Below are positions 21,463 to 39,453 of a stretch of 64,000 nt of DNA, piece after piece. The notes beneath the pieces were generated by a model, which did not search any database, had not been told where the DNA came from, and saw only the letters and a list, made by a program, of their open reading frames with translations. Position numbers and translations under genes: made by a program. The DNA is taken from NCBI GenBank assembly GCA_965116025.1, contig OZ220480.1:1056001-1120000 (forward strand). The letters are read 5' to 3'. The first letter of the stretch is position 1. Each line of letters begins with the position of its first letter. This stretch comes from an uncultured candidatus Porisulfidus sp. Lineage in GTDB: Bacteria > Pseudomonadota > Gammaproteobacteria > Poriferisulfidales > Poriferisulfidaceae.

Positions 21463-23655
21463 TCAGCCTGACGTAATCAGGGTACGGTAAAGACCGTCGA
21501 TCTCGATCAGTTCATCGTGACGGCCTTCCTGAACGACCCGGCCGCCGTCGAGAACGATGATCCGGTCGGCATCCCGGATCGTGCTGAGCCGATGGGCGAT
21601 GATCAGACACGTGCAACCGCGCTGGCGGAGGTTGTCGTCGATCTCCATTTCGGTAGCGGGATCAAGCGCGGCCGTGGCCTCATCGAACACGATGATTTGT
21701 GGATTGGGCGCGAGAGCGCGCGCGATTTCCAAACGCTGGCGTTGGCCACCGCTCAGGTTTCGTCCGCCTTCCTCTATGGGCGCGTCGTATTTGTCCGGTC
21801 GGGCCATGATATCGTCGAGGATCGCGGCGCCGCGCAGGGCTTGGGCGACCTGATGGTTGCTGATGGTCGAATTCCAGAGGGTGATGTTGTCTCGCACGCT
21901 TCCCTCGAACAAGACGATTTCCTGATCGACATAGGCCAGGGTCTCAGCGATGTTGGTGGGGGACAGGTCCTGCAGCCGGTCGGCATCTATGCGCACGGTT
22001 CCGGACCACGGGCTGAGCAGGCCGCAAACCAGCTTGCCGATGGTCGATTTGCCGCTACCGGAACCGCCGACCAGAGCGATTCGTTGGCCGGGATTGATCG
22101 TGAGATTGAAATTCTCGATCAGCGGCGCCTCTTGCCGGTTGTAGCCGAAGGTGACGTTTTCGAGCGTAACGAAACCCAAGCTACGCGGACGCTCGCTATT
22201 GTCGGGTTCGCTCATGCCGCGAACGACTCGCAGATCCGACTTGTAGTTCAACACGTCGTCGAGTCGCGCGATGTCGGCCTTGACCGTTTGCAGGCTGGCG
22301 CCGAACTGGATCAAGCCCTCGATCGGTTGGGAGAAGCTACGCGCGAGGCTTTGAAAGGCGACCAGTCCGCCAACGGTCAGGACGCCCTCCAGAAGACGCA
22401 GGCCGCCAACACCAAGAATCGCGACGGTAGTCAGCGCGGTGAGCAACGGCGGCACGACGTTCAGAAGGTTGGTCAATCGGCCCAGATCCTGTTGGGCGTC
22501 CACCACATTGGTATGCATGCCGGCCAGACGCGAGAACAGGTCGCCCTCCGTGCAGTTGGCTTTCAAGGTTTCGATCATGCTGAGCCCAGCGACGGACGCG
22601 CCCGCGACCTTGCCCTGTTCTTTGAGCAGGCGACGGCTGGCATTCTCCCGGGCGCGAGAAACTAATTGAAGGGCGAACAGATTGATGGCCGTCATGGCCA
22701 ATACGACGAGCGTCAAGATCGTGTCGTACGCCAGCATGACCCCCGCATAGGCGATCATGGTGAGCATATTGATAGCGTTGGTGGCCAGTTCGCCCGATAC
22801 GATCCGCGCCACATTGTCGTTCGACGCGACTCGGTTGGCAATGTCTCCCGCGAAACGCTGGGAGAAGAACGTCATTGGCAGCGTCATGACATGCCAGAAA
22901 AACTGCGAGGTCGTGACCAGGGAGAGCTTGGTTTCCATACGCGCGAGACAGTGCTGCTGGAACCAGGTGAGCAAGCCATGCAGGACGGTCACGATTCCGA
23001 GGCCGATGAGGAGCGGCATGACGAGATTCTCGCTTCTCCCGACCAGAATCTCATCCACGAACACTTTGGAAATCGTTGGGACGGCGAGCCCTGGAACCAG
23101 CAACGCGAGCGTCGCCAATATGACGAACAGCAGCGGAGAACGCGCCCGGCCCAGACGAACGAACAAGCCCCGCAACAAACTCGGTCGCGCGCCGCCCCGT
23201 TCGAAACGCGGCGTCGGTTCGAATGCGAGACAGACCCCAGTAAATCCTTCGTCGAATTCCTGCATGGATATGCGGCGTGGGCCTTCGGCTGGATCGTTGA
23301 TGTAGACAAGACCGCGCCGGATGCCCTCAAGCACGACGAAATGGTTGAAATTCCAGAAAATGATCATCGGAAAGGGAAGGTCGAACAGGCGTCCCGGGTC
23401 GCGTCGGAAGCCGCACGCGTCAAGGCCGAGTTTCCTGGCCGCCCGCAACATGTTGATCGCCTTGCTGCCGTCGCGTGACACGCCGCAGCGCACGCGCATC
23501 TCTTCCAGCGGTATCCATTTACCATGATGCGCGAGAATCATCGCTAGACAGGCGGCACCACATTCCGTCGCCTCCATCTGCAGGATGGTGGGCACGGCTC
23601 GTCTGCCGCCATGCTTTCTGGAAATGTTCGGACGCAGCTTGATAGAGTCGTTCAC
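21463..23655 (-). CDS. NHLP bacteriocin ABC transporter with C39 peptidase domain
   Basis: LQMEATECGAACL, WNFNHFVV, INDPA, Walker A/B motifs. Confidence 0.93.
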   Translation of the reverse strand: MNDSIKLRPNISRKHGGRRAVPTILQMEATECGAACLAMILAHHGKWIPLEEMRVRCGVSRDGSKAINMLRAARKLGLDACGFRRDPGRLFDLPFPMIIFWNFNHFVVLEGIRRGLVYINDPAEGPRRISMQEFDEGFTGVCLAFEPTPRFERGGARPSLLRGLFVRLGRARSPLLFVILATLALLVPGLAVPTISKVFVDEILVGRSENLVMPLLIGLGIVTVLHGLLTWFQQHCLARMETKLSLVTTSQFFWHVMTLPMTFFSQRFAGDIANRVASNDNVARIVSGELATNAINMLTMIAYAGVMLAYDTILTLVVLAMTAINLFALQLVSRARENASRRLLKEQGKVAGASVAGLSMIETLKANCTEGDLFSRLAGMHTNVVDAQQDLGRLTNLLNVVPPLLTALTTVAILGVGGLRLLEGVLTVGGLVAFQSLARSFSQPIEGLIQFGASLQTVKADIARLDDVLNYKSDLRVVRGMSEPDNSERPRSLGFVTLENVTFGYNRQEAPLIENFNLTINPGQRIALVGGSGSGKSTIGKLVCGLLSPWSGTVRIDADRLQDLSPTNIAETLAYVDQEIVLFEGSVRDNITLWNSTISNHQVAQALRGAAILDDIMARPDKYDAPIEEGGRNLSGGQRQRLEIARALAPNPQIIVFDEATAALDPATEMEIDDNLRQRGCTCLIIAHRLSTIRDADRIIVLDGGRVVQEGRHDELIEIDGLYRTLITSG

Positions 23656-24902
23656 TGCGCGGTTATCTTCTTCAGTAGCGGGATCACCATGGTGATCGGG
23701 CGCTGGCTTCCGACCTTGATGTCCACGTTGGCGAGCGTTCCGGAAATCAGTGCCTCACCCTCTCCCTTGGTCGTGGTCCAAGCGACGCCGCTCGTAGTCG
23801 ATGGGTCGGGCACCAGTTTCACGCGGCTGGCGTATGGCGGCCCGTTCTGGGAGAAGATCTGGGCGAGCTCCTGATTTTGCAGCACGGTGACCATGCCACT
23901 AACGCTTACCGGAAACTCGGATACGCTCTCGACCACGCCCTTGACGAAACCATGCGTCTCCGGTTGCGTGGTCGCGGGAGAGACCAACACGTCCATTCCC
24001 GGCTCGACCCGTTTTCCATCGCTCGGTGGAATGTACATCAGCACCTCGACTTCTTCGCCCGAGCCAGTCTTGATGCTGAGCACGGGCTGGCCCGCGCCGA
24101 GCACTGAGCCTAGGGCGGCCTTGATCTCGATGACGCCGCCGGAGACCGGCGCCAGGATTTGTTGGGCCTGCAACCGCGTCTGGATCTCACGAGCCCGCGA
24201 GCGCGCCTCTTGGAGGCGGGTGTCGGCACTGTTCACCTGGACGCGGTGATCGTGCAGGCGCGTTAGCTCTCGCGCCTCCAGCGTCTCGATTTGGCGGGTG
24301 GTTTCGAACAACTCCTGCTGCGCGCGGTCGAAGGCCTGCTGGCTACGCTCCAGAGTGACCCGGGTCACGACGCGCTCCTTATAGAGTTGGCGGTGGCTTT
24401 CGAGGCGTTCACGAGCGGTTCGCACCGCCTGGCGACCGGTGCGTTCAAGCTGTTCGAGACGAGCCTGTTGCTTGGCCACGTTGTTTTTGAACAGCCGGTC
24501 CTCCGCTTCGAACGCCGCCTTGAGATTGCTTAAAGTCCGTTCGCTCTCCTTAAGCAAGGCGAGCGCGCTCCGGTAGCGCTCCTCCAAATCGGGGTTCACG
24601 GTCTTGGCGACGACCTCTCCCTTCTCAACGAATTGACCGACCGTGAAGGCGATATCGGTCAACGTGCCCGTGTCGGCGGCGACCGCGTCGATCACCGTGC
24701 CGCCGGTGTTCAGCAGTATTCCGCTGGCGTTCACATAATTGGAAACGGTTCCCAATACGGACCACGTCACCAGCGCGGCCACGAGCGCTATTGACGAGCA
24801 CAGCGCCAGCCATTGCTTGGGCGAGACGACTGAAAGCGCTCGGTCGAGCTTCTCGGGTTCGGACAAATGGTCCAACGCCGCTTTTCTGAACAATTCAACC
24901 AT
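23652..24902 (-). CDS. NHLP bacteriocin system HlyD-family secretion protein
   Basis: LFRKAALDHLSEPEKLD, one TM segment, coiled coil, barrel-sandwich hybrid. Confidence 0.9.
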   Translation of the reverse strand: MVELFRKAALDHLSEPEKLDRALSVVSPKQWLALCSSIALVAALVTWSVLGTVSNYVNASGILLNTGGTVIDAVAADTGTLTDIAFTVGQFVEKGEVVAKTVNPDLEERYRSALALLKESERTLSNLKAAFEAEDRLFKNNVAKQQARLEQLERTGRQAVRTARERLESHRQLYKERVVTRVTLERSQQAFDRAQQELFETTRQIETLEARELTRLHDHRVQVNSADTRLQEARSRAREIQTRLQAQQILAPVSGGVIEIKAALGSVLGAGQPVLSIKTGSGEEVEVLMYIPPSDGKRVEPGMDVLVSPATTQPETHGFVKGVVESVSEFPVSVSGMVTVLQNQELAQIFSQNGPPYASRVKLVPDPSTTSGVAWTTTKGEGEALISGTLANVDIKVGSQRPITMVIPLLKKITAQ

Positions 24903-24974: not shown

Positions 24975-26441
24975 TTATTCCATCAGGTACAGGATCCCGG
25001 GAGCCAGTTTCCATTTCGCGTCGCGGGCCTCGCGGGCGAGGTCGGGCAGGCCCGCGACTCCGAGTTTTCGTGATGTCAGCGCGCCGACCGCGTCCAGCAA
25101 GCGGTAGGCTTCGACGATCACATCGCGCTCGGCCGAAAGCGCGTTGATCTGGCGCGTGACGACACGCCGTTCGGCATCCAGAACCTCCCGCGTCGTCCGC
25201 TCTCCGAACTCGGCTTCCCGCCTGATTCCCTCGAGCGCGGCGCGCGACGCGTCAACCGCGGTCGCGAAAGCCGCTTGGCGCTTTCGAGCGGCCTCTAGGT
25301 TCCACCAAGCGCTTTCAACCAGTTGTGACGCGTCGCGCACGGCGTTGAGCCGCTCGTTCCGGCGCTGGGCCTGAACATGCTTCGCTCGACGGATCCGCGC
25401 GCCTACCGCGCCCGCCTGATAGATTGGCAAGGTCAGTTGCAGCGACAGGCTCATTTCGTCGCTGCCCGGAAGATTCGTTTCGGCGAAGCCTGGAAAAACC
25501 GCTCCAGTTTGCCTCTTGGTCGCGGCCCTGAGATCAATGCGCGGTCCGAGCTCGGCGGCGGCCACGCGAACCGACGCTTCAGCGACGCGAGTGGCGGCTT
25601 CGGCGACGCGGACGGCGGGCCTCTGCGACCGAGCTATCTGGCGCGCTTCATCCAGGGTTCGCGGCAGGCCAGCTGGCAGGCCGGCTGGCTTGAGACCGTC
25701 GGGCACCAAGCCGATCAACTGGAGAAAGCGGACGCGTTGGACTTCCAGCTCGGTCGTCGCCGCCACCATTTCCGCGACGGCGATCTCTCGTTCCGCCTCG
25801 GCCTGAGCGACATCGGCGCCGGTCCGGTCCCCGACATCGTACTGCGCCTTGACGTCTCGCGCCTGCGCGTCGAACGCGGCGAGCGAAGCCGCCCGCAGCT
25901 CGGCAACCCGTTTCGCCCGGAGCGTGTCGAGATAGACCGTCGCGGCGCGAAGAAGAACGGCCTGTTCCCTGTTTTCCACGGAAGCGTGGCTCCGTGACAC
26001 GCCTTGAACGGCTCTTTGGAGCGCGGCGGAGTCGCGTCCGCTGCGAAACAGGTTTTGCGTGATGGAGAACGTCCAGGAGCGTGGAGAAGAATATTGGGCT
26101 CGGGCCGCGCCGGGAGGGAACGGCCAGTCGGAGGCGGTTCGCTGTCGACTGCCGCTGGCGCTGAACTGGAGCGTGGGCAACCACGCGGAGACGGCCTCCG
26201 GCACATCCTCGTGGCTCGCGCGCGCGGCTTCCCGGACCGCGTCCAGACCCGGGTTGGACATCGCGGCCTCGGCTAGCGCCTCCTCAATGGTTAGCGCTGA
26301 CGCCGGCGCCGAGGCGAGCGCGAGAGCGATGCCGGGCGCGGCGAGGCGGGAACGAGCGACGCGTGGTCGGAAGCGCGTTTTTCTTGGATGGGATTTCGCT
26401 CGGGGCGTTCCCGGTTGGTCGGATGATGGCGTCTCTCTCAC
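24975..26441 (-). CDS. TolC-family outer membrane efflux protein
   Basis: LTIEEALAEA..NP, QNLFRSG, GDRT..DV, LPIYQAG, GERTTREVLDAE; start uncertain (in-frame GTG at 26441 used). Confidence 0.85.
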   Translation of the reverse strand: MRETPSSDQPGTPRAKSHPRKTRFRPRVARSRLAAPGIALALASAPASALTIEEALAEAAMSNPGLDAVREAARASHEDVPEAVSAWLPTLQFSASGSRQRTASDWPFPPGAARAQYSSPRSWTFSITQNLFRSGRDSAALQRAVQGVSRSHASVENREQAVLLRAATVYLDTLRAKRVAELRAASLAAFDAQARDVKAQYDVGDRTGADVAQAEAEREIAVAEMVAATTELEVQRVRFLQLIGLVPDGLKPAGLPAGLPRTLDEARQIARSQRPAVRVAEAATRVAEASVRVAAAELGPRIDLRAATKRQTGAVFPGFAETNLPGSDEMSLSLQLTLPIYQAGAVGARIRRAKHVQAQRRNERLNAVRDASQLVESAWWNLEAARKRQAAFATAVDASRAALEGIRREAEFGERTTREVLDAERRVVTRQINALSAERDVIVEAYRLLDAVGALTSRKLGVAGLPDLAREARDAKWKLAPGILYLME

Positions 26442-26487
26442 GTCGCGCGCCGCCCGGCTCGGTTCGTTTTCCCCATCTTTGACGGGA

Positions 26488-28791
26488 TTAAATGAAAACC
26501 GCGACAGGATTGAGGTCGGCCTCGGCGCAGGGCGTTTCGCGCCATCCCATCGCGACCGGCACGTCGTAGAGGCGGCCGGGCGCGAACCGCGGCCAGAAGT
26601 GGCGCAGTCCCGGCACGATGGTTCGGGCGACCGGCATGCCGATATCCGGTCGGGTTTGGTCAAGCACCAGAAATTCCATGCCTTTGGCCTCGACCAGCGC
26701 GCGGCAACGTTCGACATCGTCCCGGATATCGGTCGTTTTTGGTGCCGAGTAGTCTTGGGCCACGCGCCGCGTTCGCTCGTCCGGCGCGAGATAGGAGCGC
26801 TCCGCGAGTTTCGCGTTGCGCCACCACCAGAGGCATTCTGGGTCATCATACAGGTAGCCGCCGCCGTCGGCGTCGACGTCCCGAACGGCGACCAGGTACT
26901 GGTTCAGCTCGCACAGCGCGCGGTAGGCGGCGATGTGAGGTTCGAAATGAGCCCCGGCCGAGTACAGGATGTCTTCGGCCTCCTTGTCGGTCCGGCGCGA
27001 CACCGCGACGAACACCGGGATCCCGAGATCGGAGGTGATGTCAAGCATCCAGAGATCGCGGTGGAAAGACTGGTAATATTCGCGGGCGCGGTCCAAATAG
27101 GGTTCGCCGAAACTGTCCAGATCCAGGGCGGGGAGCGATGCTCGATTGTACCACCAGCAGGCGAAGGCGTCGCGCTCCACCAGTTCGAAGAATCCTTGGA
27201 GAATGGCCTCCTCCAGCGTGTTGCCGGACGCGCAGCCGTTGGAGTCAGGGCCGCAGTAGATTTGTCCGCCCTCGTGCGGCGTGGCGAAATAGAGCATCGA
27301 AGTGGGCAGGTAGCGGTGCCGCTCCCGGGTCATCGACCATGCCGGCGTCCAGTCCATCTCCACGGCGGGATCGAAGCGCTTCGGGACGAAATTGAATCGC
27401 GCGCCGAGCGCGTTGATCTCCTCGGCATGGTCGTACTGCCAGTCGCTGAAGAGCTGGACCTCGTTGGGATGGATCGCCTCGCCATCGGCGAAGTCCTCTA
27501 GTCGTGCGCGGCGGCGGATCTCGTCGCCGTGGAACGCGCCGGAAACGCGCTCGATCGCCTCGCACAACGCGCTCGCCTCAGCCTGTTCGGGGCTGGCGCC
27601 CTTGCCCGAGCTCTTGCTCCTGAGGGTGGCGCGCAGCAGGCGCAGATTGTCGTTCCGCAGCGCGATGTTGCTACCCGACCAGTAGACATGCAGCCACGGA
27701 TCCGTCTCGCTGGTGGAGCGGATCAGCTGGGTGACCACGCCGCTCACGGGGCTCACCAGATGGCGGTAGCGGGCGATCGTCTCTCGGGGTCGCACCGAGC
27801 GCGAGCCGCCGGAGTTGGCCACCGTCCGAGGGCAGGACTTGAGCGTGACCGGAACTGGCGCTCGGTCCGGGCGGTAGAGCGCCGGGTCGCCGCAGACCCC
27901 GCATTGCGGGCGGCGGAACACCCGATGCCGGTCGCTCGCGAGGTTGTAGGCGTCGACGGAGATCACGTGTTCATGAAGCGCCGCCCTTTCCCCGAAGACG
28001 ATCCACTTGGCGATCTCGACGGCGGCGAGGCCGAGGATCGACTCGACGAGCTGGGCCGGCGCGAGGCGCCGTGGGAGCGCGCCGCTTGCGCCGGCGCGCA
28101 AGAAATTCTCGACCTCGCGGTTGCTACGGAGACGATGGGCTAGACAGGCCCAGCACGGGCCGTCGTCGCTGGGTCGGAACACCGGACCGAAGAGCGCCGT
28201 CAGGCCGCTTGGCGCCACCGGCAACCACGGAAGTCCGGACGCGAGGTGGCGACGGTTGATCTTGGCGCAGTCTTCTCCGAGAAAGTCGTCGCACACGATG
28301 ACCGAGAGGGTCGGATCGTCGTCGGTCACGGTGATGTCCATCGCCGCTAGCCGGGCGCGGAGACCGTCGCCGGTCACCGCGACCCGGACCGCGTTCAGTC
28401 GCGTCTCCGCCCAGCGCGGCGACGCTCCGCACGCGCTCCAGAAGGCCGCCATTTCCCGGCTGATCGCGGCGCCGGCGGAGACCACATAGCCCTTCGACGC
28501 CAGCGAGACCAGCGCGGTCTGGACCTCAATCGCCGAATACCGGTCCGCCAGCGTCGCGGCGATCTCGTGGCGCGAGTGGCTACCGTCAAGCAACGGCAGG
28601 ATATCGAGATAGCGTCGGCCGTGGAGGATGCCGCTGAAGGCCTCGGACACGATCAGCGCGGTCGTGTCGTCGTGCGGGCGAAAGTCGAGGTGCGGGGCCA
28701 GCATCGGCCGCTCGACCAGACCGCGGTCTTCCTCCAGACTGCACAGGATCGCCTTTGGGGGAGGGGAGACCGAAACGGGGTCCATCTTCAA
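26488..28791 (-). CDS. Fused TOMM cyclodehydratase (RRE/E1-like C domain plus YcaO), copy 1
   Basis: GPCWACL, RPQCGVC, SSGKG, ASALCEAIER, SNGCASGNTLEEAILQGFFELVERDA, RALCELNQ. Confidence 0.93.
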   Translation of the reverse strand: MKMDPVSVSPPPKAILCSLEEDRGLVERPMLAPHLDFRPHDDTTALIVSEAFSGILHGRRYLDILPLLDGSHSRHEIAATLADRYSAIEVQTALVSLASKGYVVSAGAAISREMAAFWSACGASPRWAETRLNAVRVAVTGDGLRARLAAMDITVTDDDPTLSVIVCDDFLGEDCAKINRRHLASGLPWLPVAPSGLTALFGPVFRPSDDGPCWACLAHRLRSNREVENFLRAGASGALPRRLAPAQLVESILGLAAVEIAKWIVFGERAALHEHVISVDAYNLASDRHRVFRRPQCGVCGDPALYRPDRAPVPVTLKSCPRTVANSGGSRSVRPRETIARYRHLVSPVSGVVTQLIRSTSETDPWLHVYWSGSNIALRNDNLRLLRATLRSKSSGKGASPEQAEASALCEAIERVSGAFHGDEIRRRARLEDFADGEAIHPNEVQLFSDWQYDHAEEINALGARFNFVPKRFDPAVEMDWTPAWSMTRERHRYLPTSMLYFATPHEGGQIYCGPDSNGCASGNTLEEAILQGFFELVERDAFACWWYNRASLPALDLDSFGEPYLDRAREYYQSFHRDLWMLDITSDLGIPVFVAVSRRTDKEAEDILYSAGAHFEPHIAAYRALCELNQYLVAVRDVDADGGGYLYDDPECLWWWRNAKLAERSYLAPDERTRRVAQDYSAPKTTDIRDDVERCRALVEAKGMEFLVLDQTRPDIGMPVARTIVPGLRHFWPRFAPGRLYDVPVAMGWRETPCAEADLNPVAVFI

Positions 28792-30182
28792 TCCACCTGC
28801 TCACGGTCCTTTGGGGGGCCGCCGAGAATGAAGTCGCCGACGGTGCCCTCGACCACTGGGTCCAAGCCCGTGACCCGCGCGAAACGCGCGGAGTTTCCGG
28901 TGCCCAGGCCGCACGGGGAAAGACCGAGATCGGTCGCCACGAGGTAGAGAGTCTGATAGAGCGCCCCCACATTGCGCAGAGTCACGCCATAGGCGATTGC
29001 TCGGTACTTCCACATCACCCGGGCGAAGCGGGCGCTGAACGCCAGCACGATCTGCGGATTCGCCAAGTGCCCCGTCGCCACTCTCGCGTCCTCCACGATC
29101 GCTTCCACATCGGGCGTCCGGCTAGCGATCGCGACCAGTTCATGCGTCGCCGCGTCGTAGTGGTAGAAGCCGGACTCCAAGCCGTCGCAGCGGTCGACCA
29201 CCGGATAGATCTCGAGCTCGTAGCTGGCGCCGCCGGTGGGATAGGGCCGTCTCGTGACCTCGAAATCGCAAACCTTCCCCGTGATGCCGCCGACTTGGAC
29301 CGTGGAGCGGTCGAGAATCCGCGCGGCGCGGTCAAGCAACGCGCCCAAGTCCGCCAAGGAGATCGGGCGGTCCTCGTCGTAGACCCGCTCCGAACGTCGC
29401 CGCTCGAGAACCCGCGCGAGCGATTCTCCCCCGGCATCGTCCGGCGCGCCCGGCAACGCGATCCGCCGGCCGGGCCAGGGGGGGCGAACGCCGGGCAGCG
29501 GATCGAGCTGGCCGACGAATGGAAAGATGCCGCCGATCGGGTCGGCATGCCAGCCTGGTCGATGATGCCAGTGAAACAGCAGGTCGTGAAATTCCCACTG
29601 CGCCAAGGCCTCATCGCGCGGGTCGTCTTTCGGGCGCTCGGTCTCGAGAAAACCTTCCGCGGCCAGCGCGCGCCGAATGACGGGAATGTCCAAACGGCTC
29701 GGGTCAGGGAAAAGGAAGCGCGTGCCGGCTAGCGGAGATTCCAGCACCCAGTCTTGTCCAGCACGGCGCAGGCAGGCGAAGCGATCAAGGCCGGCCTCCG
29801 GCGACGGCATGTCATCGGCGAGGCGAGGCGCATGGCCGTCCCATTGCGGTTGCATCACGGCATGCTCGCCGGCATCGTCGATGACGACCAGTTCCATCCC
29901 CCGGAACCGGTAGAGGCTCTGCAGAGCGATGAGATAGGAGGCCGCGAGTGAAGGCCCGCCGGCTTCGATGACCGCGTCGCGGAGTTCCCGCAACGGGGCA
30001 CCGTCGCGAAGCAACGCGTTGGCCTTCTCGTACGCGCTCTTGTAGGGGGCGAAAGGGGGGCCGATGCCGTACGCCGGGTCGATGACGACGAGGGATTCGC
30101 CATCCGAAGATGCCGCCAGCTTTCGCCCGGCGGGCAGGCGGGCGAGGATGGCGGGCTCCTTGATCAGGTCCAGGAATCCCAT
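28788..30182 (-). CDS. SagB-type FMN-dependent azoline dehydrogenase with N-terminal extension
   Basis: WEFHDLLFH, RRRSER, RPYPTGGASYELE, RVMWKY, QTLYLVATDLGL. Confidence 0.92.
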   Translation of the reverse strand: MGFLDLIKEPAILARLPAGRKLAASSDGESLVVIDPAYGIGPPFAPYKSAYEKANALLRDGAPLRELRDAVIEAGGPSLAASYLIALQSLYRFRGMELVVIDDAGEHAVMQPQWDGHAPRLADDMPSPEAGLDRFACLRRAGQDWVLESPLAGTRFLFPDPSRLDIPVIRRALAAEGFLETERPKDDPRDEALAQWEFHDLLFHWHHRPGWHADPIGGIFPFVGQLDPLPGVRPPWPGRRIALPGAPDDAGGESLARVLERRRSERVYDEDRPISLADLGALLDRAARILDRSTVQVGGITGKVCDFEVTRRPYPTGGASYELEIYPVVDRCDGLESGFYHYDAATHELVAIASRTPDVEAIVEDARVATGHLANPQIVLAFSARFARVMWKYRAIAYGVTLRNVGALYQTLYLVATDLGLSPCGLGTGNSARFARVTGLDPVVEGTVGDFILGGPPKDREQVD

Positions 30183-30193
30183 TCGTCCCCCGA

Positions 30194-32509
30194 TCAGACG
30201 AACACCGCGACGGGGTTCAGGTTGGCTTCCGCGTTTGGCTGGGCGAGCCAGCCCATCTTGACCGGCACGTCATAGAGACGTCCGGGAGCGAATCGCGCCC
30301 AGAAATGCCGCATGCCCGGCACGATGGTTCGGGCGACCGGCATGCCGATATCCGGGCGGGTCTGGTCCAGGACCAGAAACTCCATGCCGAGATCCTCGAC
30401 CAGAGACCTGCAATGCTCGACATCCTCCCGCGTATCGGAGGTCCGGGGAGCGGGATAGCGCTCCACGCGCCGCTCGGGCAGGGTGGAGTCCGGCAACAGG
30501 TAGGGGTGATCGGTCACGCGGGCGTTCTTCCACCACCACAGGCTCTCGGGATCGTCGAAGAGATACCCGGTGCCGTCGGCTTTCACGTCCCGGACCGCGG
30601 TCAACTGCTGGTTCAGCTCGCATACGGCCCTGATGCCGGCGATATGCGGATCCAGATGGGCTCCCGCGGCGAACAGGATGTCCTCGCGATCCTTGTCCGT
30701 TCGACGCGATACCGTGGCGAACACCGGAATGCCGATGTCGTGGGTCAGGTCGATCATCCAGATGTCGCGGTGAAAGGAGGCGTAGTAGTCGCGCGCTTCG
30801 GAAAGATAGGGGTCGCCGAAGCTGTCGAGCGCCACCGCGGGAAGTCGCAGCCGGTTGTACCACCAGCAAGCGAAGGCGTCGCGCTCCACCAGCTCGAAGA
30901 ACCCTTGCAGAATGGCCTCCTCCAGGGTGTTGCCGGCCGCGCAGCCGTTCGTGTCCGGGCCGAAGAACAGCTGGTCATGCTCTTGCGGCATGGAGAAATA
31001 CAGCATTCCGGTGGGCAGGTATCGATGGCGCTCTCGCGTCAACGACCAGACCGGAGACCAGCTCATCTCCACGGTCGGATCGAAACGCTCGGGAACATAA
31101 GCGAATTTCCGTTTCAGCGCGTTGAGTTCCGCGGCATGGTCGTATTGCCAGTCGCTGTAGTGCAGAACGGTTTCCGGACGGATGGCCTCGCCCTCGCGAA
31201 AATCCGTGAAGCGGGCTCGGCGGTGGATCTCGTCTCCGCGGTAGGCGAAGGAATGTCGCTCGATGGCCTCGCATAGCGCGCTCGCCTCGGCTTGCTCGGG
31301 CGTGCTCCCCTTCCCGGAATTCAGCGAGCGGACGCTGTTGCGCAAAGCCAGGAGGCTACGCGCTTGCATGGCGAGGTTGGCGCCGGCCACATTGACATGC
31401 AACCAGGAATCCCGCTCATCGGTGATGCGCAGCAACCGGTTCACCACTCCCGTGACCGGACTGACGAGGTGCCGGTATCGGCGCACGGTGTCTTGTGGCT
31501 GCACGGCGCGAAAACCGCCGCTGGTCCGCACCGGTTTTGGGCTCGGGGAAAGTCGCACGGGCGAGGCCGGGCGGTCGACACGAAACAGCGCCGGGTCGCC
31601 GCAGGACTGGCACTGTGGCCGCCGCGCGACCGGATGGATAGAGGTCTCCATGCCGAGAGACTCCAACGCCATGGTATGGTCGTGGAGCGCGGCGCTTTCG
31701 CCGAAGACGACCCATTTCGCGAGTTCCAGGGCCGCCAGCCCGATCACGATGTCGAACAAGCGATCAGGCGTGCTTGAGGGGAACGCGAAGCCGGCCGGGA
31801 GGCCGCGCAGATAGTTCGCTACCTCGATATTGCTACCGATCCGGCTCGCGAGGCAGTCCCAGCATGGCGCGTCCTCATCACCGGGGCGGAACACCGGACC
31901 GAGCAGAGAAAAAACGCCCGCTGGCTTGACTAGAGCCCACGGAACGCCCGATTCCAGATGAACGCGGTTGGTTCGCGCGTGGGCTTCGTCCAGGTAATCG
32001 TCCGTGACGACGACCGAGAGCGTCGGCCTGTCCGGGCCAACGGCAAGTCCGAGGCTCTTGAGCGCGGCGCCGAGCCGCCCGTCGTCACCGGGCGCCGCGA
32101 TTCGGGCGGCGCCAAGACGTCGTTCCGCCCATCTTGGCGTGGCTCCCTGCGCGCACCAGAACGCGGCCGACGCCCGGCCCATGGCGAAGTCGGCCGAGAC
32201 GACGCAACCTTTGGCCGCGAGGGAAACGATGGCGGTCTGAACGCTTAGAGCCGAATGTCGCCCCGAAAGCTCAGTGATGATCTCGTGCCGGGTGAGGTTT
32301 CCCTCAAGCAAGGGCGCGAGGTCGCGATACAACTCTCCGATCAGAAGAACGCTGGCGGTCTCGGACGCCAGCAACAAGGATCCGTCTTCCGCAATGCGAG
32401 AAGTAAGATGAGGAGCCAGCAGTGGTCTTTCGACTATGCCTCGGTCGAATTCGGTGAACCGGCGCGGCGGCGCGAACGCCAGCTTCCATCCCGCTTGATC
32501 GACAGACAC
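30194..32509 (-). CDS. Fused TOMM cyclodehydratase (RRE/E1-like C domain plus YcaO), copy 2
   Basis: APCWDCL, RPQCQSC, NSGKG, ASALCEAIER, TNGCAAGNTLEEAILQGFFELVERDA; GTG 32509 follows GGGAG. Confidence 0.92.
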   Translation of the reverse strand: MSVDQAGWKLAFAPPRRFTEFDRGIVERPLLAPHLTSRIAEDGSLLLASETASVLLIGELYRDLAPLLEGNLTRHEIITELSGRHSALSVQTAIVSLAAKGCVVSADFAMGRASAAFWCAQGATPRWAERRLGAARIAAPGDDGRLGAALKSLGLAVGPDRPTLSVVVTDDYLDEAHARTNRVHLESGVPWALVKPAGVFSLLGPVFRPGDEDAPCWDCLASRIGSNIEVANYLRGLPAGFAFPSSTPDRLFDIVIGLAALELAKWVVFGESAALHDHTMALESLGMETSIHPVARRPQCQSCGDPALFRVDRPASPVRLSPSPKPVRTSGGFRAVQPQDTVRRYRHLVSPVTGVVNRLLRITDERDSWLHVNVAGANLAMQARSLLALRNSVRSLNSGKGSTPEQAEASALCEAIERHSFAYRGDEIHRRARFTDFREGEAIRPETVLHYSDWQYDHAAELNALKRKFAYVPERFDPTVEMSWSPVWSLTRERHRYLPTGMLYFSMPQEHDQLFFGPDTNGCAAGNTLEEAILQGFFELVERDAFACWWYNRLRLPAVALDSFGDPYLSEARDYYASFHRDIWMIDLTHDIGIPVFATVSRRTDKDREDILFAAGAHLDPHIAGIRAVCELNQQLTAVRDVKADGTGYLFDDPESLWWWKNARVTDHPYLLPDSTLPERRVERYPAPRTSDTREDVEHCRSLVEDLGMEFLVLDQTRPDIGMPVARTIVPGMRHFWARFAPGRLYDVPVKMGWLAQPNAEANLNPVAVFV

Positions 32510-32533
32510 TATGACAGCGCTCCCATGACCGAG

Positions 32534-32555
32534 CCCCGCGCGAGAGCGCGCGGGG
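32534..32555 (-). terminator. GC-rich stem-loop between the small NHLP genes and the maturases
   Basis: CCCCGCGCG-AGAG-CGCGCGGGG, perfect 9-bp stem, no U tract. Confidence 0.5.
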
Positions 32556-32579
32556 AGACAGGAAGGCGATTCGGCCTCC

Positions 32580-32873
32580 TTACTCGCTTTCTTTGTCCGT
32601 CGTCGCGGCGTCCCGATAGGTGGAAGGCGCTGGCAAAAGAATATGGACGAGGTCACTGGTGTTGAAGACGAGTTTCACCTTGGCCCCTTCCGGGAAATCG
32701 AAGCCCTCGGCCTTAAGAACGGCAGTCGGGTCGGCATCCATCTTCGCCTTGAAGTCGGGGTCGCCATAGTATTTCGCCACCACGTCCGCATAGAGTTGCT
32801 GGCGCTCCTTCAGATCTCCCGATGTAAGAAGATCGGTGACCAAGGCATCAATCTTCTCATTAGGCTTATTCAT
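32580..32873 (-). CDS. NHLP-leader-like protein with no double-glycine site and no core
   Basis: VVAKYYGDPDFKAKMDADPTAVLKAEGFDFPEGAKVKLVFNTSDLVHILLP, then a short acidic tail; strong RBS AAAGGAG. Confidence 0.85.
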   Translation of the reverse strand: MNKPNEKIDALVTDLLTSGDLKERQQLYADVVAKYYGDPDFKAKMDADPTAVLKAEGFDFPEGAKVKLVFNTSDLVHILLPAPSTYRDAATTDKESE

Positions 32874-32909
32874 GTTAGTCTCCTTTATTCTCTGTTAATT
32901 GTGAAAGTT

Positions 32910-32937
32910 CCGCGCTCCCGGTCTCCCGGGAGCGCGG
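32910..32937 (-). terminator. Stem-loop downstream of the precursor genes (terminator or mRNA stabiliser)
   Basis: 12-bp perfect stem CCGCGCTCCCGG/CCGGGAGCGCGG with a GAGA tetraloop on the minus strand, 10 nt after the stop codon. Confidence 0.65.
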
Positions 32938-32947
32938 CGATGCCTTA

Positions 32948-33364
32948 CTAGCTGGCGCTACCCGCGGTGCCGGCGGTGCCGGCCGTGGAGAATGAGCTGA
33001 AAAACGTGCTGGTCTGGAAGGTGCTGGCCGAGCTGACGCTCCCCGCGCTGCCAGCCGTGGCGCCTCCTGACACCGCGCTCAAGCTCTCGTCCGCCAAGCC
33101 CGTATTCGGGTCGGGCGGCAAGATGAAATGCACGACTTCATCCGTGTTCGCGACCACATCGACTTGCATGCCGGTTACGGGAACATCGAACCCGAATGCC
33201 GCGTACACCTCGCTGCCGCTGGCCTTATCGATCTCGACGCGGAAATCCTCGTCGCTCCGATAACGGTCAGCCGCCTCGAGGAATCGCTCGTAGCTTTTCG
33301 TGTATGTTCCCATCGCCGTTGGCGACATATCGATATTTTCAAAAAAATTTCCTGCGGCGTTCAT
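32948..33364 (-). CDS. NHLP-family RiPP precursor A
   Basis: Leader VVANTDEVVHFILPPDPNTGLADESLSAVSGG; core ATAGSAGSVSSASTFQTSTFFSSFSTAGTAGTAGSAS; ATG 33364 follows AGGAG. Confidence 0.9.
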   Translation of the reverse strand: MNAAGNFFENIDMSPTAMGTYTKSYERFLEAADRYRSDEDFRVEIDKASGSEVYAAFGFDVPVTGMQVDVVANTDEVVHFILPPDPNTGLADESLSAVSGGATAGSAGSVSSASTFQTSTFFSSFSTAGTAGTAGSAS

Positions 33365-33433
33365 AATTTTTTTCTCCTGGAGTTTTTGTCCGAAAGGATA
33401 GTTACTGGACATCCGATGACGTCGCGCGACGCG

Positions 33434-33823
33434 TCAGCCGGCTGATCCTGCCGATCCAACGGTGGACGCGCTGCCAAGACTGGAAAAGGAAGTGAAAGTG
33501 AGGAAGGTGCTCGCCGACCCGACAGTGCCGGCCGTGCTGGCCGTGCTGCCGCCGGAAATCTGGCTCAACTGCTCGTCCGCCAGATCACTGTTCGGATCGG
33601 GCGGCATGACGAAGTGCACCAGCTCATCGGAATCCATCAGAAACTGACAATCGATTCCTTCCAAGCGCGTCATTCCGAACTCGTCGAAGACATCGCTATT
33701 GTCGCCACGGTCAATCCGGTCACGGAAAGCCGCGTCGTTGCGGTAGCGGTCAGAAATGGCGACGATGAGCTCACGACGCTCGTCGTTCAATGTCATTTCC
33801 TGCATGAATTGTTCGCTTTTCAT
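33434..33823 (-). CDS. NHLP-family RiPP precursor B
   Basis: Leader LVHFVMPPDPNSDLADEQLSQISGG; core STASTAGTVGSASTFLTFTSFSSLGSASTVGSAGSAG. Confidence 0.9.
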   Translation of the reverse strand: MKSEQFMQEMTLNDERRELIVAISDRYRNDAAFRDRIDRGDNSDVFDEFGMTRLEGIDCQFLMDSDELVHFVMPPDPNSDLADEQLSQISGGSTASTAGTVGSASTFLTFTSFSSLGSASTVGSAGSAG

Positions 33824-34167: not shown

Positions 34168-36681
34168 TCATGCTGGGTGGACGCTCGCCAGACGCGCGAA
34201 GGCGACGGCAAGCGCGGGAGTTCCGTCTATCCCCGAAAGATCGTGCCGATCATCGATCCATCTCTCGGCGAACCAGCTTTCCAGTTGATCGCGGTCTCGC
34301 CTCATGCGCGTCGCTGCCCGCCGGTCGGCGCAGACCGGCTCCGCATGGTTGGGGTCCAACCAAGGAGCGAGGCGGGGCAGGGCCGAAGGCGCATAAGGTC
34401 GTTGCGGTCCATGCCTCTCTGGAACCGTGCCGCCGAGGGCCAGCGCCGCGTCCTTCCAGCCAGCGAGGCCGGACACGAAATCGCTCCCGGACCGCATCCA
34501 CGCTTCTTTTTCCAAAGCACTTCGGTACACCATTCGCGCGTCCTCCCGCAGACAGGGCTCGCGCGCCAGCACTTGCAGGAGTCCGCCAACGCCGACCGCG
34601 TATCCGACTCCCATGTCTTGGCTGAAGTTCATGGATTCGGCATAATCGCGCGCCGCTCCCCTCAGTGTTTCGCGCGCGATAGCCGCCAAGTCCGTGCGGC
34701 CGAGCCTTTCGCCCAGCTCCAGCAGCGCCCGAGCGATTCCCGCGCGGCCCGAGAGAATATCGATGGAGAGTGGTGCCAGAAAACGCCTTCCGAAGTGAAC
34801 ATCATGCATCATGCCGATCCAGGTCGGGTACCCGCAATCGTTCGTCACGGCCAAATCCTGAACTTCGGTAGCGATCTGGTCCGCCCAAGCCAGAAGATCC
34901 CCCGGTTCCGCGGGAGCCGCCTGGCCACGAACCGGGGTTCGCCGTGGCGGATTGGCGGCGCGCGCGGAGAACGATGAGCGCAACCACGCCAGCCGCTCTC
35001 GGTCGGTCGCCTCGGTCATGGTTCCGAACGCGGCGCGCATGGTGGCTATCGCGTCTTCCTCGAAAGCGTCCCGCCGCGCCTCGCCCTCCACTCCCAGAAG
35101 GTCTCGAGAGGCCGGAGCGGTCAGGAACAGTGGAATGTCGAGACGGCGCATGTCGCGCACTGCCGCCTCGCGGAGCGCGCCGGACAACCCGGCATAGCGA
35201 GGCAACATCTTGTGCAAGGCGATCTCGCGCCATACGCCATCCGACAGGGTGCTGGGAAGGAGGGATTCCTGAACGATCCGGTAACAGGTCCACGTGTCAA
35301 TGAGGAGGAAGCGAAGCTGCGCGTCCGGCACGCTCTCGAGAGCCGCCAGGATCCGATCTTGCGTCGCCACCGAGCCCAACTCCCGGGAGACTCGGAGATA
35401 GCCGTCCTCAAGAGCGTCGAAATGCGCCGCGCTGTCCGCGAAATCGCCGGACTCGTAACGCGGGGCATATCGGTCTTCTTTCCAGACGAACAGGCCGTCT
35501 TGCTCTACGGCCTTCATCGGCGTGCGGTGTTCCCCTGGTTGGCAGAGGCAACCCAGATCGGTTGGCTCCAGACCTTCCCTGGTCGACATTTGGAGTGGCA
35601 ATATGCCAACGTTGGCGACTCTCATGCTGAAGCTGATTGCGTCCTCGTCAACCAAGCGTCGTATTTGTGGCGGCCACGGCGAGGTCGGCTGTAAAACCGT
35701 TTCGAAATCAACGAACCGCGGCGTGGGGCCGTCGGCGATCAGGTTGTCGAACCAGAAATCGGTCGCGTTCATGGTCTGGAGCAACGCTAGCCACCCGCCG
35801 AGCGCCTGGTAGAACCGGTCGGCGTCTCCGGTGTCGGTGACGGGTCGTGGCGCGTATTCCGTTTCCCAGGCATAGCCCGCGCGCGGTACCGTGGAAGGCG
35901 GCGAGAGATCGACGCTGGAAATCAAGCCGACGATTTCCTGCATCACGCCCGCGATTCGCAGATCCTTAGGTTTGAACACGACCGAGCCATTGGCGAAACG
36001 CAGGATCGCGACCGACCGCCCTCCGGCGTGCGGGTCGCCAAGTCCGTGCTCAATGCTGATCAGCAATCCGGGATCCCCGCCGCCGAAGAAGCGGCTGGAC
36101 AGTTCAGCCCGGTCGTTAGCCGCATGGCGCAGCATCCGAACAAGATCCGAACGCCAGTCGACCATCGCGCGGCCGAGCGCGTAGGCCAGCGCTGGGCTGC
36201 GGGCTAACCTCGCCTCCCAAGTCGATTTCGACACGCCCAGTCTGGCTTCATACCGCATGGTCTGCGTCAGGATCGAGCGGAAGCGCCATTCGAGATGCGA
36301 AATGGCTCCATCCAGCGCGTTGGCGCCGCGCGGCAGACCGTCGGGCCATTCCGCCTCAGCGCAACTCCGCGCCCATGAATAGACATCTGAAAAGGGCGCT
36401 TCGGTATCAGCCAGCCGGCTAAAGATTTCTCGAAAGGCGCGACCCCAGTCCGGCGTGGGGCCCTCAAGGCGGACATCGCCGAATCTCGCCAGATAAGCGT
36501 CCAAAGACAGCCCTAGGGTCTCGGCATGCGAGCCCAGCGCGCGCCGTGATCCGAATGCCTTGAGAAGCCTGTCCTCGCGGCGAGCCCAGGAGTCGGGGTC
36601 AGTGGGGGTCGAGATGAACGGCCCGTCGCCACCGCGCTCTGGTGGCGGCGACGCCCGAGCGATGAGAATATCGAGATCCAT
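34168..36681 (-). CDS. LanM-like dehydratase (DUF4135) with degenerate, truncated LanC-like domain
   Basis: GLGDPHAGGRSV, VFKPK, TDFWFDNL, FVDFET, DIPLF; C-terminal SGRAG and DFVSGLAG repeats but no WC/CHG zinc motifs. Confidence 0.85.
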   Translation of the reverse strand: MDLDILIARASPPPERGGDGPFISTPTDPDSWARREDRLLKAFGSRRALGSHAETLGLSLDAYLARFGDVRLEGPTPDWGRAFREIFSRLADTEAPFSDVYSWARSCAEAEWPDGLPRGANALDGAISHLEWRFRSILTQTMRYEARLGVSKSTWEARLARSPALAYALGRAMVDWRSDLVRMLRHAANDRAELSSRFFGGGDPGLLISIEHGLGDPHAGGRSVAILRFANGSVVFKPKDLRIAGVMQEIVGLISSVDLSPPSTVPRAGYAWETEYAPRPVTDTGDADRFYQALGGWLALLQTMNATDFWFDNLIADGPTPRFVDFETVLQPTSPWPPQIRRLVDEDAISFSMRVANVGILPLQMSTREGLEPTDLGCLCQPGEHRTPMKAVEQDGLFVWKEDRYAPRYESGDFADSAAHFDALEDGYLRVSRELGSVATQDRILAALESVPDAQLRFLLIDTWTCYRIVQESLLPSTLSDGVWREIALHKMLPRYAGLSGALREAAVRDMRRLDIPLFLTAPASRDLLGVEGEARRDAFEEDAIATMRAAFGTMTEATDRERLAWLRSSFSARAANPPRRTPVRGQAAPAEPGDLLAWADQIATEVQDLAVTNDCGYPTWIGMMHDVHFGRRFLAPLSIDILSGRAGIARALLELGERLGRTDLAAIARETLRGAARDYAESMNFSQDMGVGYAVGVGGLLQVLAREPCLREDARMVYRSALEKEAWMRSGSDFVSGLAGWKDAALALGGTVPERHGPQRPYAPSALPRLAPWLDPNHAEPVCADRRAATRMRRDRDQLESWFAERWIDDRHDLSGIDGTPALAVAFARLASVHPA

Positions 36682-38974: not shown

Positions 38975-39363
38975 CTAGCAGGCGCTGCCCGCGGCGCTGG
39001 CCGTGATGCCCACGGCGTGGCGGAGGATCTCGCGCCTAGGCCTAGTACGTGCTGAGGCTACCTGTGGCGACCGTGCCGAACGAGCTACCGCCGGAAATCT
39101 GGCTCAACTGCTCGTCCTCCAGATCGCTGTTCGGATCGGGCGGCATGACGAAGTGCACCATTTGATCGGAATCCACAAGAAACCGATAATCGATTCCTTA
39201 CCAAGCGCGTTATTCCGAATTCGTCGAAGACATCGTCGCTGTCGCCACGGTCAATCCGATCACGGAAAGCCGCGTCATTGTGGTAGCGGTCAGACATGGC
39301 GACGATGAGCTTATAGCGTTCGTCGTTCAACGTCATTTCCTGCGTGAATTGATCGTTGTTCAT
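38975..39363 (-). pseudogene. Frameshifted NHLP precursor paralog
   Basis: Near copy of the precursor B leader with a +1 insertion at ~39200; corrected frame reads ...PPDPNSDLEDEQLSQISGG-SSFGTVATGSLSTY*; the tail and downstream hairpin resemble precursor A. Confidence 0.85.
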
Positions 39364-39453
39364 CAGCTGCTCCATGGTGGCTATGGGCTAGCATGGTATC
39401 ACTTCTTTCATGCGCCCGCAAGGAAGGATTCGGACTCGATCTCCGAGCTGATC

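Follow-up and report, generated by a model that had tools for sequence, protein, structure and literature searches.

A coreless NHLP leader domain, probably a helper protein, that accompanies NHLP precursors and exporters of uncultured marine bacteria

What is a leader peptide for when it is encoded as a gene of its own, with neither a cleavage site nor a core behind it? The question is raised by a stretch of 64,000 nt from an uncultured candidatus Porisulfidus sp. (GCA_965116025.1, contig OZ220480.1, positions 1,056,001-1,120,000 of the forward strand), referred to here as the window. On its minus strand, inside a gene cluster for a peptide made by ribosomes and modified after translation (RiPP), positions 32580..32873 encode a protein of 97 aa with an ATG start, here named short97, which has the nucleus of an NHLP leader and no core. 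RiPP models assume that the leader is covalently joined to its core, and a free, conserved leader domain would be a part that current models omit. We found that an unnamed family of such short proteins accompanies NHLP precursors and exporters in uncultured marine bacteria, where it is probably a helper. That short97 is a functional protein and not a substrate we hold to be very probable; that it is an accessory pairing with the precursor leaders is a tentative reading, which draws on a structure prediction and on analogy.

The short protein and its family

NHLP leaders have been described, from nuclear magnetic resonance, X-ray scattering at small angles (SAXS) and mutagenesis, as a rigid N-terminal domain of ~60 residues (alpha1-3, beta1-2), followed by a proline-rich stop and a disordered tail that bears the Gly-Gly site and, at -12 to -7, the LxxxxL motif (PMC10858898); removal of the tail is reported to lower the stability of the nucleus (PMC12537861). 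Residues 23-84 of short97 correspond to positions 1-62 of the 77 positions of the NCBIfam profile TIGR03793 (leader_NHLP); at 38.4 bits (E 8.3e-10) the match does not reach the curated cut-off, which is 50.9. Pfam NHase_alpha (PF02979) matches with E 5.8e-5 (23.0 bits, cut-off 27.2) and TIGR01323 of NCBIfam with 25 bits (cut-off 249.85). The predicted layout consists of helices at residues 21-37, 39-47 and 49-55 and strands at 68-70 and 76-78, after the last of which come LPAPS and an acidic tail of 13 aa. The C-terminus reads ...HILLPAPSTYRDAATTDKESE (LVHILLPAPSTYRDAATTDKESE is likewise given as the terminal letters) and holds neither LxxxxL nor Gly-Gly, and there is no core peptide rich in modifiable residues; the two neighbouring precursors, A and B, match TIGR03793 through position 77 and do carry the LxxxxL and Gly-Gly leader end.

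The initial annotation had called the gene a stand-alone NHLP leader without core or cleavage motif, with a strong ribosome-binding site and beside precursors of more divergent sequence. All of this is borne out: by the open reading frame (ORF) itself, the match to TIGR03793 positions 1-62 of 77 and the absence of Gly-Gly; by an AGGAG motif read from the sequence at 32880..32884 (minus strand), 6 nt 5' of the ATG; and by identities of only 36% and 25% between short97 and the two precursors over residues 22-85. Short97 shares with the NHLP precursors (TIGR03793; MprE7, 8TB1; DprE2, 9CJX) the fold unit, the order helix-helix-helix-hairpin-proline and the setting in an NHLP/NHLM cluster. Although it stays below the curated cut-off and lacks the LxxxxL helix, the Gly-Gly site and the core, the fold unit is clearly common to both. 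Short97 corresponds to the rigid N-terminal part of an NHLP leader, a nucleus of three helices and a hairpin of two strands that closes with the proline stop; it lacks a core and the flexible LxxxxL/Gly-Gly tail, by which enzymes and the C39 peptidase take hold of a leader.

A word-indexed search of 5.8 billion proteins returned 87 relatives of short97 at E <= 2e-17, with lengths of 71-129 aa. The H-x-x-x-P strand is followed by no more than 3-18 residues in 85 of them (by just 3 in 21), and in the remaining two this anchor pattern has no match. The tails of the 85 are variable, with no common pattern, and a pattern search found a double-Gly-type motif in none of the 87. The extra length of the four relatives over 100 aa in our 36-row alignment comes from N-terminal start calls. 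Their near-invariant block is VAKYYGDPDFKAK.DADPT..LKAEG...PEG..VKLLFNT..L.HIVLP, and at the sites where NHLPs read AKAW.D..F and V.ENT, the short family reads KYYGDPDF and LLFNT. All proteins of the family are named 'hypothetical protein' only. When 1.84 billion representatives were searched exhaustively with the profile, 2443 matched at E <= 1e-3. As classified here, 79 of the best 150 are tandem proteins; a single unit occurs without a core in 22 and with a tail or core in 49, and no true nitrile hydratase is among them. The hidden Markov model (HMM) scores are bimodal, with the short type at 103-144 bits and the precursors at 16-52 bits.

The ratio of nonsynonymous to synonymous substitution rates (dN/dS) of short97 is 0.10-0.18 against the short genes of four close loci (L001-L004; 80-88% identical). 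In the same genomes the precursors have ratios of 0.14-0.32, and the LanM-like protein (LanMbC), SagB, the second YcaO (YcaO_b), HlyD and ABC1 have ratios of 0.10-0.23. In the 24 more remotely related loci (L005-L028) short97 keeps a median identity of 65% to the window protein; the corresponding medians are 39% and 42% (precursors), 54% (LanMbC), 61% and 65% (YcaO proteins), 59% (SagB), 67% (ABC1) and 55% (ABC2). In a quick tree of 190 NHLP units (77 columns; most other forks unresolved) the short family forms one clade with an SH-aLRT support of 100, a stem length of 0.54 and short inner branches; it stands apart from the neighbouring leaders, which are far less conserved. Alpha- and Gammaproteobacteria as well as Acidobacteriota have intact short-type ORFs that stop at the same point. 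The 87 database relatives, taken with the dN/dS against the four close ones, place short97 beyond chance. Judged by its dN/dS, the median identities and the single clade on a long stem, the lineage is old, separately evolving and constrained, and it is no truncated precursor.

A recent truncation of a precursor was considered and is ruled out, since all 87 relatives lack the Gly-Gly motif, their end point is common and none has a core. The annotation's view of a conserved non-precursor therefore stands: close homologs with a core were sought among the 87 and none was found, and the check it had named, of conservation and dN/dS in homologous clusters, found the family kept, at the low ratios given above.

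Small unmodified accessories are familiar in the form of stand-alone RRE (PqqD-like) proteins, which mediate leader-enzyme recognition, and a leader acting apart from its core is known from laboratory enzymology. RREs are receptors of winged helix-turn-helix fold, to which a leader binds as an added beta-strand; short97 appears to share its fold with the leaders and not with these receptors, and no PqqD/RRE family of Pfam or NCBIfam matches it, the family profile matching NHase/NHLP chains only. A further protein of comparable size is Os1348 of Pseudomonas sp. Os17 (PDB 6LK7), of 85 aa, annotated as a nitrile hydratase alpha chain and encoded beside a SagB-type dehydrogenase and efflux genes (PMC7726476). 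The crystal is reported to contain it as a homodimer, antibiotic activity drops when it is lost, and the authors of that study regard it as a precursor (PMC7726476). Its match to the short-family profile is marginal (E 0.016), it aligns with the tandem model described below at Z 3.5 over 41 residues, and it is all-helical.

Full-text literature searches, which did not extend to subscription journals, found no description of a stand-alone or coreless, or of a duplicated or two-domain, NHLP leader. The covered portions of Haft et al. 2010 (PMC2887384) deal with Gly-Gly-bearing members and leave coreless ones unmentioned, and the sponge RiPP papers, in the parts covered, describe precursors only and no coreless leader. 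By these searches, the use of the known leader fold as a free protein inside NHLP/NHLM systems appears to be new.

The company of the short gene

A locus scan with one genome per species and an exact peptide pattern gave 29 loci, all in metagenome-assembled genomes, whose labels are Alpha- or Gammaproteobacteria or Acidobacteriota/Vicinamibacteria. Cluster genes lie within 10 kb of the short gene in 26 of the 29 loci, NHLP precursors in 20 and YcaO genes also in 20; directly downstream comes TolC in eight loci (L010, L012, L015, L021, L022, L025, L027, L028) and YcaO in seven. One locus, L029, holds a truncated short-type fragment. Two clean orphan copies (L006, L011) are placed among unrelated housekeeping genes, and their genomes have 24 and 74 NHLP matches elsewhere, together with NHLM ABC2 genes over cut-off. 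Neither HMM nor double-Gly pattern found a precursor in L006, L008, L010, L011, L012 or L015, nor did an ORF listing upstream of YcaO in L010 and L015. Five genomes were checked, including those of the orphans, and each holds 18-74 NHLP matches and 1-3 NHLM ABC2 over cut-off. Family members outside the exact peptide pattern bring the number of copies to three in one genome (G001) and to two each in two others (G002, G005).

Among 41 relatives of the window's genome, which are kin and whose counts are not independent, the short type (> 100 bits) was found in five, and these are the only genomes with NHLP arrays. They include all four with an ABC2 over cut-off, and the ten same-genus genomes whose only ABC2 is a sub-cutoff paralogue carry no short-type gene.

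The modifying enzymes are less regular. G005, which has two short copies, gave no candidate for a YcaO of the thiazole/oxazole-modified microcin (TOMM) type (TIGR03604), and G003, G004 and G009 gave sub-cutoff matches only, the completeness of these genomes not being given. Three loci consist of modules with no modifying enzyme in view: precursor, short gene, HlyD, ABC1 and ABC2 in L046; three precursors and the short gene beside ABC genes in L045; and in L025 the short gene and TolC, an EamA transporter, four small Gly-Gly precursors, ABC2 and ABC1. The four small ORFs of L025 (12700-14120 of that locus, plus strand) lie between the short gene with TolC and the NHLM ABC2/ABC1 genes. They have leaders of ~30-45 residues that end in LTD[DE]ELQDVAAG (one in MTDSEMDRITGG) and cores rich in Trp, Asp and Arg, with no NHLP nucleus. 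In this locus, a single case with ORFs picked by pattern, nucleus and tail sit on separate genes, which is suggestive.

Across these loci and further copies, the constant companions of the short gene are NHLP precursors and the NHLM exporter, and not any one enzyme. The family itself comes out as monophyletic, of 71-97 aa, and is found at one to three copies per genome where NHLP arrays and an NHLM exporter are present.

A proposed pairing with precursor leaders and its alternatives

The short-family profile matches MprE7 (8TB1, residues 7-70) with E 3.5e-15 and DprE2 (9CJX) with E 1.7e-6. It also matches nitrile hydratase alpha chains (PF02979, TIGR01323), in two or three separate stretches each and with E down to 2e-15, from which it follows that the enzyme body holds an NHLP-type unit more than once; the profile resembles each of its two repeat units. 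Short97 differs from these chains in being a single unit of 97 aa as against ~200, and with no Cys residue it cannot hold the CxLCSC metal-binding site.

Tandem NHLP proteins present a similar arrangement, having an extra tail-less NHLP unit and a canonical leader unit, that is, the parts of short97 and a precursor in one chain. They differ in that their units are covalently linked, arise as internal duplications and fall outside the short clade. The structure predicted for one of them (71 sequences) has a predicted local distance difference test score (pLDDT) of 83.6 and a predicted template modelling score of 0.77. Its residues 1-162 align with residues ~42-196 of nitrile hydratase alpha at Z 8.7-9.7, with a root-mean-square deviation of 3.5-4.3 A over 121-133 residues and query-normalised Foldseek TM-scores of 0.43-0.52. 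This model suggests that two NHLP units can pack as they do in the enzyme.

The tandem leaders were also recorded in their own right. They make up 79 of the best 150 representatives, with two or three units per chain (e.g. P0095, P0099, P0100, P0104, P0109), and 36 of the 79 have a clear LxxxxL..GG and core past the last unit. The architecture is common and apparently undescribed. Two-unit proteins without any core also occur (P0140, P0151, P0165, P0172, P0210, P0230, P0236). Two larger proteins, P0110 (491 aa) and P0233 (708 aa), combine two short-family-type NHLP units with a large common C-terminal region (29% identity, E 1e-40) that has no Pfam or PADLOC match and for which the atlas gives a lead, and a lead only, near ApeA_NTD1/HEPN_Apea clusters (score 0.91, 186 shared features). 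PADLOC gave no match for the whole of short97, P0110 or P0233. A Rosetta-stone argument, in which tandem proteins would be fusions of a short protein with a precursor by orthology, was examined and ruled out: in the quick tree a tandem's two units frequently come out as sisters, and the only tandem units inside the short clade are those of P0110 and P0233. Tandem units that are often each other's closest relatives point to internal duplication and not to fusion of the short family.

We predicted the complex of the precursor A leader (residues 1-101, 47-row alignment) with short97 (36-row alignment), along with three controls. The pair reached an interface score (ipSAE) of 0.55 (0.62, 0.53 and 0.55 in the individual runs), the best control 0.00. 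Contacts are shared between the runs to 70% or more, and the partner has a pLDDT of at least 67. The ipSAE mark is reached by 58 of 80 solved complexes and by 2 of 110 mismatches, scores of 0.60 or below coming from seven of the solved complexes and both mismatches, and these calibration counts hold only roughly because custom alignments were used for the pair.

The gene, its family, the purifying selection, the absence of a core, the co-occurrence and the fold relationship are observed; from them and the prediction we infer binding to precursors and an effect on their modification or export. Short97 would act in trans as a non-substrate subunit on precursor leaders, nucleus against nucleus, packed as the two repeats are within nitrile hydratase alpha and the units within tandem leaders, so that many divergent precursors would be given one constant, conserved surface for the shared machinery. 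Alternatively, it may hold the precursors until modification and export. We favour this pairing because the complex result, the logic of a two-unit fold, the presence of few copies for many precursors and the split seen in L025 all lean towards it. Should a pairing with precursors or with the exporter be true, it would explain how few shared machines serve 18-74 divergent NHLP precursors per genome. Laboratory expression of such clusters from uncultured symbionts would then need short97 as well, and leader engineering would gain a natural handle that acts in trans.

Several observations weigh against the pairing. Six loci (L008, L010, L012, L015, L025, L028) have cluster genes and no NHLP precursor within 10 kb; a motif scan of the first five found no NHLP-type precursor, only L025 having the tail-only Gly-Gly precursors. 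With a pLDDT of 56.8, the AlphaFold2 model of the short97 monomer is not good enough for fold search or comparison. The complex score falls in the weak band and is a score without an interface; in that band a pass is wrong oftener than right, unless the guess was likely beforehand. The tandem proteins being internal duplications, the argument from them holds by analogy only, and the NHLP MprE7 is reported to be monomeric in SAXS (PMC10858898). Of the roles listed in the initial annotation, that of a heterodimer partner of precursor leaders thus draws on the contrast of 0.55 against 0.00, a weak one, and on the tandem analogy, and it is held back by the band in which the score lies.

A bolder form of the same idea, possible though doubtful, is a natural split-leader system, in which the free NHLP nucleus would be a universal, detachable leader module for divergent precursors, tail-only ones as in L025 included. 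The pair would rebuild a two-unit body like that of nitrile hydratase alpha, to be recognised by the NHLM exporter, by modifying enzymes or by both, and one conserved protein would license dozens of hypervariable precursors per genome.

The pairing with precursor leaders has to be set against two other partners. In the first alternative, which we consider unlikely, short97 belongs to the NHLM exporter or regulates it. It would plug or gate the transporter in the manner of a leader, or serve as a cofactor in recognition, sitting, for example, on the N-terminal region of ABC2 and working independently of the cluster enzymes. The TolC gene directly after the short gene in eight of the 29 loci is consistent with it, as are the modules of precursor, short gene and exporter only (L025, L046) and the short gene in four of the four relatives with an ABC2 over cut-off. 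So are the conservation of short97, which resembles that of ABC1 (medians of 65% and 67%), and the cluster ABC2 proteins of 969-1001 aa, ~285 residues longer than the TIGR03797 model. On the other side, one genome with a short-type gene (G030) has no ABC2 match at E <= 1e-150, and the C39 domain is reported to recognise the LxxxxL/Gly-Gly helix that short97 lacks (PMC10858898). The N-terminal 420 residues of ABC2 have no sequence match in the PDB at E <= 10, and an atlas search with this N-terminus led to unnamed clusters and, with a score of 0.88, to C39/cNMP-binding only.

In the second alternative short97 is a trans ligand of a leader-binding domain, its helix alpha1 lying on the RRE of YcaO (or on LanMbC), as an allosteric activator or a decoy, and this too seems improbable. 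In MprE7/MprC the NHLP alpha1 contacts the YcaO RRE through residues 7, 10, 11, 14 and 17, which are needed (PMC12455567). The 8TB1 alignment maps these to Q26, A29, D30, A33 and Y36 of short97, and D30, A33 and Y36 are at least 90% conserved. YcaO follows the short gene directly in seven loci and precedes it in three, and in the window short97 lies past the stem-loop that follows the precursors, apparently on the enzyme side of the operon. However, the YcaO RRE needs both helix alpha1 and LxxxxL (PMC12455567), and short97 has no LxxxxL. By motif alignment the same face reads E26/L29/E30/D33/R36 in precursor A and E26/V29/A30/D33/R36 in precursor B, so that short97 is no simple mimic of them, and LanMbC enzymes are reported to be leader-independent (PMC10676384). 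The fetched stretches of L025, L045 and L046 hold no YcaO homolog. These copies in enzyme-free modules, and the genome with two short copies and no match to TOMM-type YcaO (three further genomes having sub-cutoff matches only), weaken the enzyme-tied options as a general function.

It is very unlikely indeed that short97 is itself the substrate, with its short C-terminal tail (STYRDAATTDKESE) as the core or with its conserved body modified. The tail does contain Ser and Thr, and L010, L012 and L015 have YcaO before the short gene and no other precursor found within 10 kb; against this, the tails of the 85 relatives are only 3-18 residues long (3 in 21 of them) and without a conserved pattern, no Gly-Gly or other common cleavage motif occurs in any of the 87, and the precursor leaders of these loci diverge fast, which short97 does not. 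That the gene is a decaying, functionless remnant of a precursor, as the broken precursor copy in the window (39042-39375) and the L029 fragment might suggest, is hardly credible in view of its low dN/dS, its strong ribosome-binding site, the intact ORFs with one end point across Alpha- and Gammaproteobacteria and Acidobacteriota, and the single clade with its long stem and short inner branches.

The surrounding cluster

All genes of the cluster run on the minus strand, in the order LanM-like protein, precursor B, precursor A, short97, YcaO_a, SagB, YcaO_b, TolC and three NHLM export proteins. Precursor A (32948..33412) has an NHLP leader with LADESLSAVSGG and a Ser/Thr-rich core; comparison with L001-L004 places its likely true start at the ATG at 33364, which gives 138 aa. 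Precursor B (33434..33823, 129 aa) has an NHLP leader with LADEQLSQISGG and likewise a Ser/Thr-rich core. In both, ...PPDPN..LADE.LS..SGG is followed by a core rich in Ser, Thr, Gly and Ala. The LanM-like protein (34168..36681), of the LanMbC type, has a DUF4135 dehydratase domain and a weak LanC-like C-terminus.

Below short97 lies YcaO_a (30194..32509), a fusion of a winged helix-turn-helix/RRE, an E1-like domain and YcaO, for which alignment with L001-L004 indicates a GTG start at 32509; a longer ORF to 32656 would overlap short97. It is followed by a SagB-type peptide dehydrogenase (28788..30182), assigned by Pfam/NCBIfam domain matches, by YcaO_b (26488..28791), a second fused RRE/E1-like/YcaO cyclodehydratase, and by a TolC-family outer-membrane channel (24975..26849 as the longest ORF), whose true start is probably further in, because the family match starts only at residue 185. 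The export genes encode an NHLM HlyD-type secretion protein (23652..24902, TIGR03794), an NHLM ABC1 C39 peptidase/permease/ATPase (21463..23655, TIGR03796) and an NHLM ABC2 permease/ATPase (18522..21458, TIGR03797) with ~285 extra N-terminal residues of no recognised family. All three score over cut-off, and the NHLM-export clustering that belongs to the NHLP family is thus present in the window.

The dehydrazole gene set was defined by Pei, Zhu and Nair in 2023 as NHLP precursors with a Ser/Thr/Cys-rich core, YcaO, an azoline dehydrogenase and a DUF4135 dehydratase fused to a cyclase-like domain, and clusters with two YcaO proteins and several divergent precursors were noted there (PMC10676384). 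By its domain matches and the cores read from the sequence the cluster of the window agrees with this set, and we regard it as a putative dehydrazole-like RiPP cluster.

Past the stop of precursor A and before short97 comes a GC-rich stem-loop (32910..32937, minus strand; 12-bp stem, 4-nt loop). It has a predicted free energy of -31.7 kcal/mol (z -4.86), none of 200 shuffles being equally stable, and a GC-rich inverted repeat is found at the same site in four of the five aligned relatives (window, L001, L002, L004) and is absent in L003. No T-run follows it, and a terminator scan gives no call. Its position would put short97 on the enzyme side of the usual divide between precursors and enzymes. 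A second GC-rich hairpin, CCCCGCGCG/CGCGCGGGG, occurs in 32510-32579 (minus strand) between short97 and the start of YcaO_a; with z -1.96 and 7 of 200 shuffles equally stable it is less pronounced, and its conservation in L001-L004 is not obvious.

Some further observations concern the neighbouring genes. The LanM-like gene, co-directional with the precursors in the window, is inverted and lies 1.2-2.6 kb further off in L001, L002 and L003, and L004 has no LanM-like match within 10 kb. The broken precursor mentioned above (39042-39375, minus strand) is a third precursor B copy, disrupted by a frameshift and located outside the cluster between NrfD-like and CobB genes; the frame of its N-terminal half covers 39085-39375, and the ...MDSDQMVHFVMPPDPNSDLEDEQLSQISGG part with a 14-aa core is in another frame (39042-39176). 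A motif P-[PV]-D-P-N right after the last strand is nearly invariant in the 47 precursors of loci that contain the short gene (D85, P86 and N87 at least 90%); neither the short family nor the canonical precursors among the best 150 library representatives have it.

Elsewhere in the window's genome (G000) there is a second, sub-cutoff NHLM-ABC2-like gene (C1:793325-795379, 670.8 bits), of a type present in 10 of 15 same-genus genomes without NHLP arrays and short gene. The same genome encodes a canonical NHLP precursor at C1:1989981-1990202 (locus L039, 425-718, plus strand), which scores 72 bits, over cut-off, and has the ending ...ELDEEQLEMIAAG|LCCCL, which resembles the sponge-derived srp proteusin precursors, for which an LCCCW core has been reported (bioRxiv 10.1101/2023.06.09.544420).

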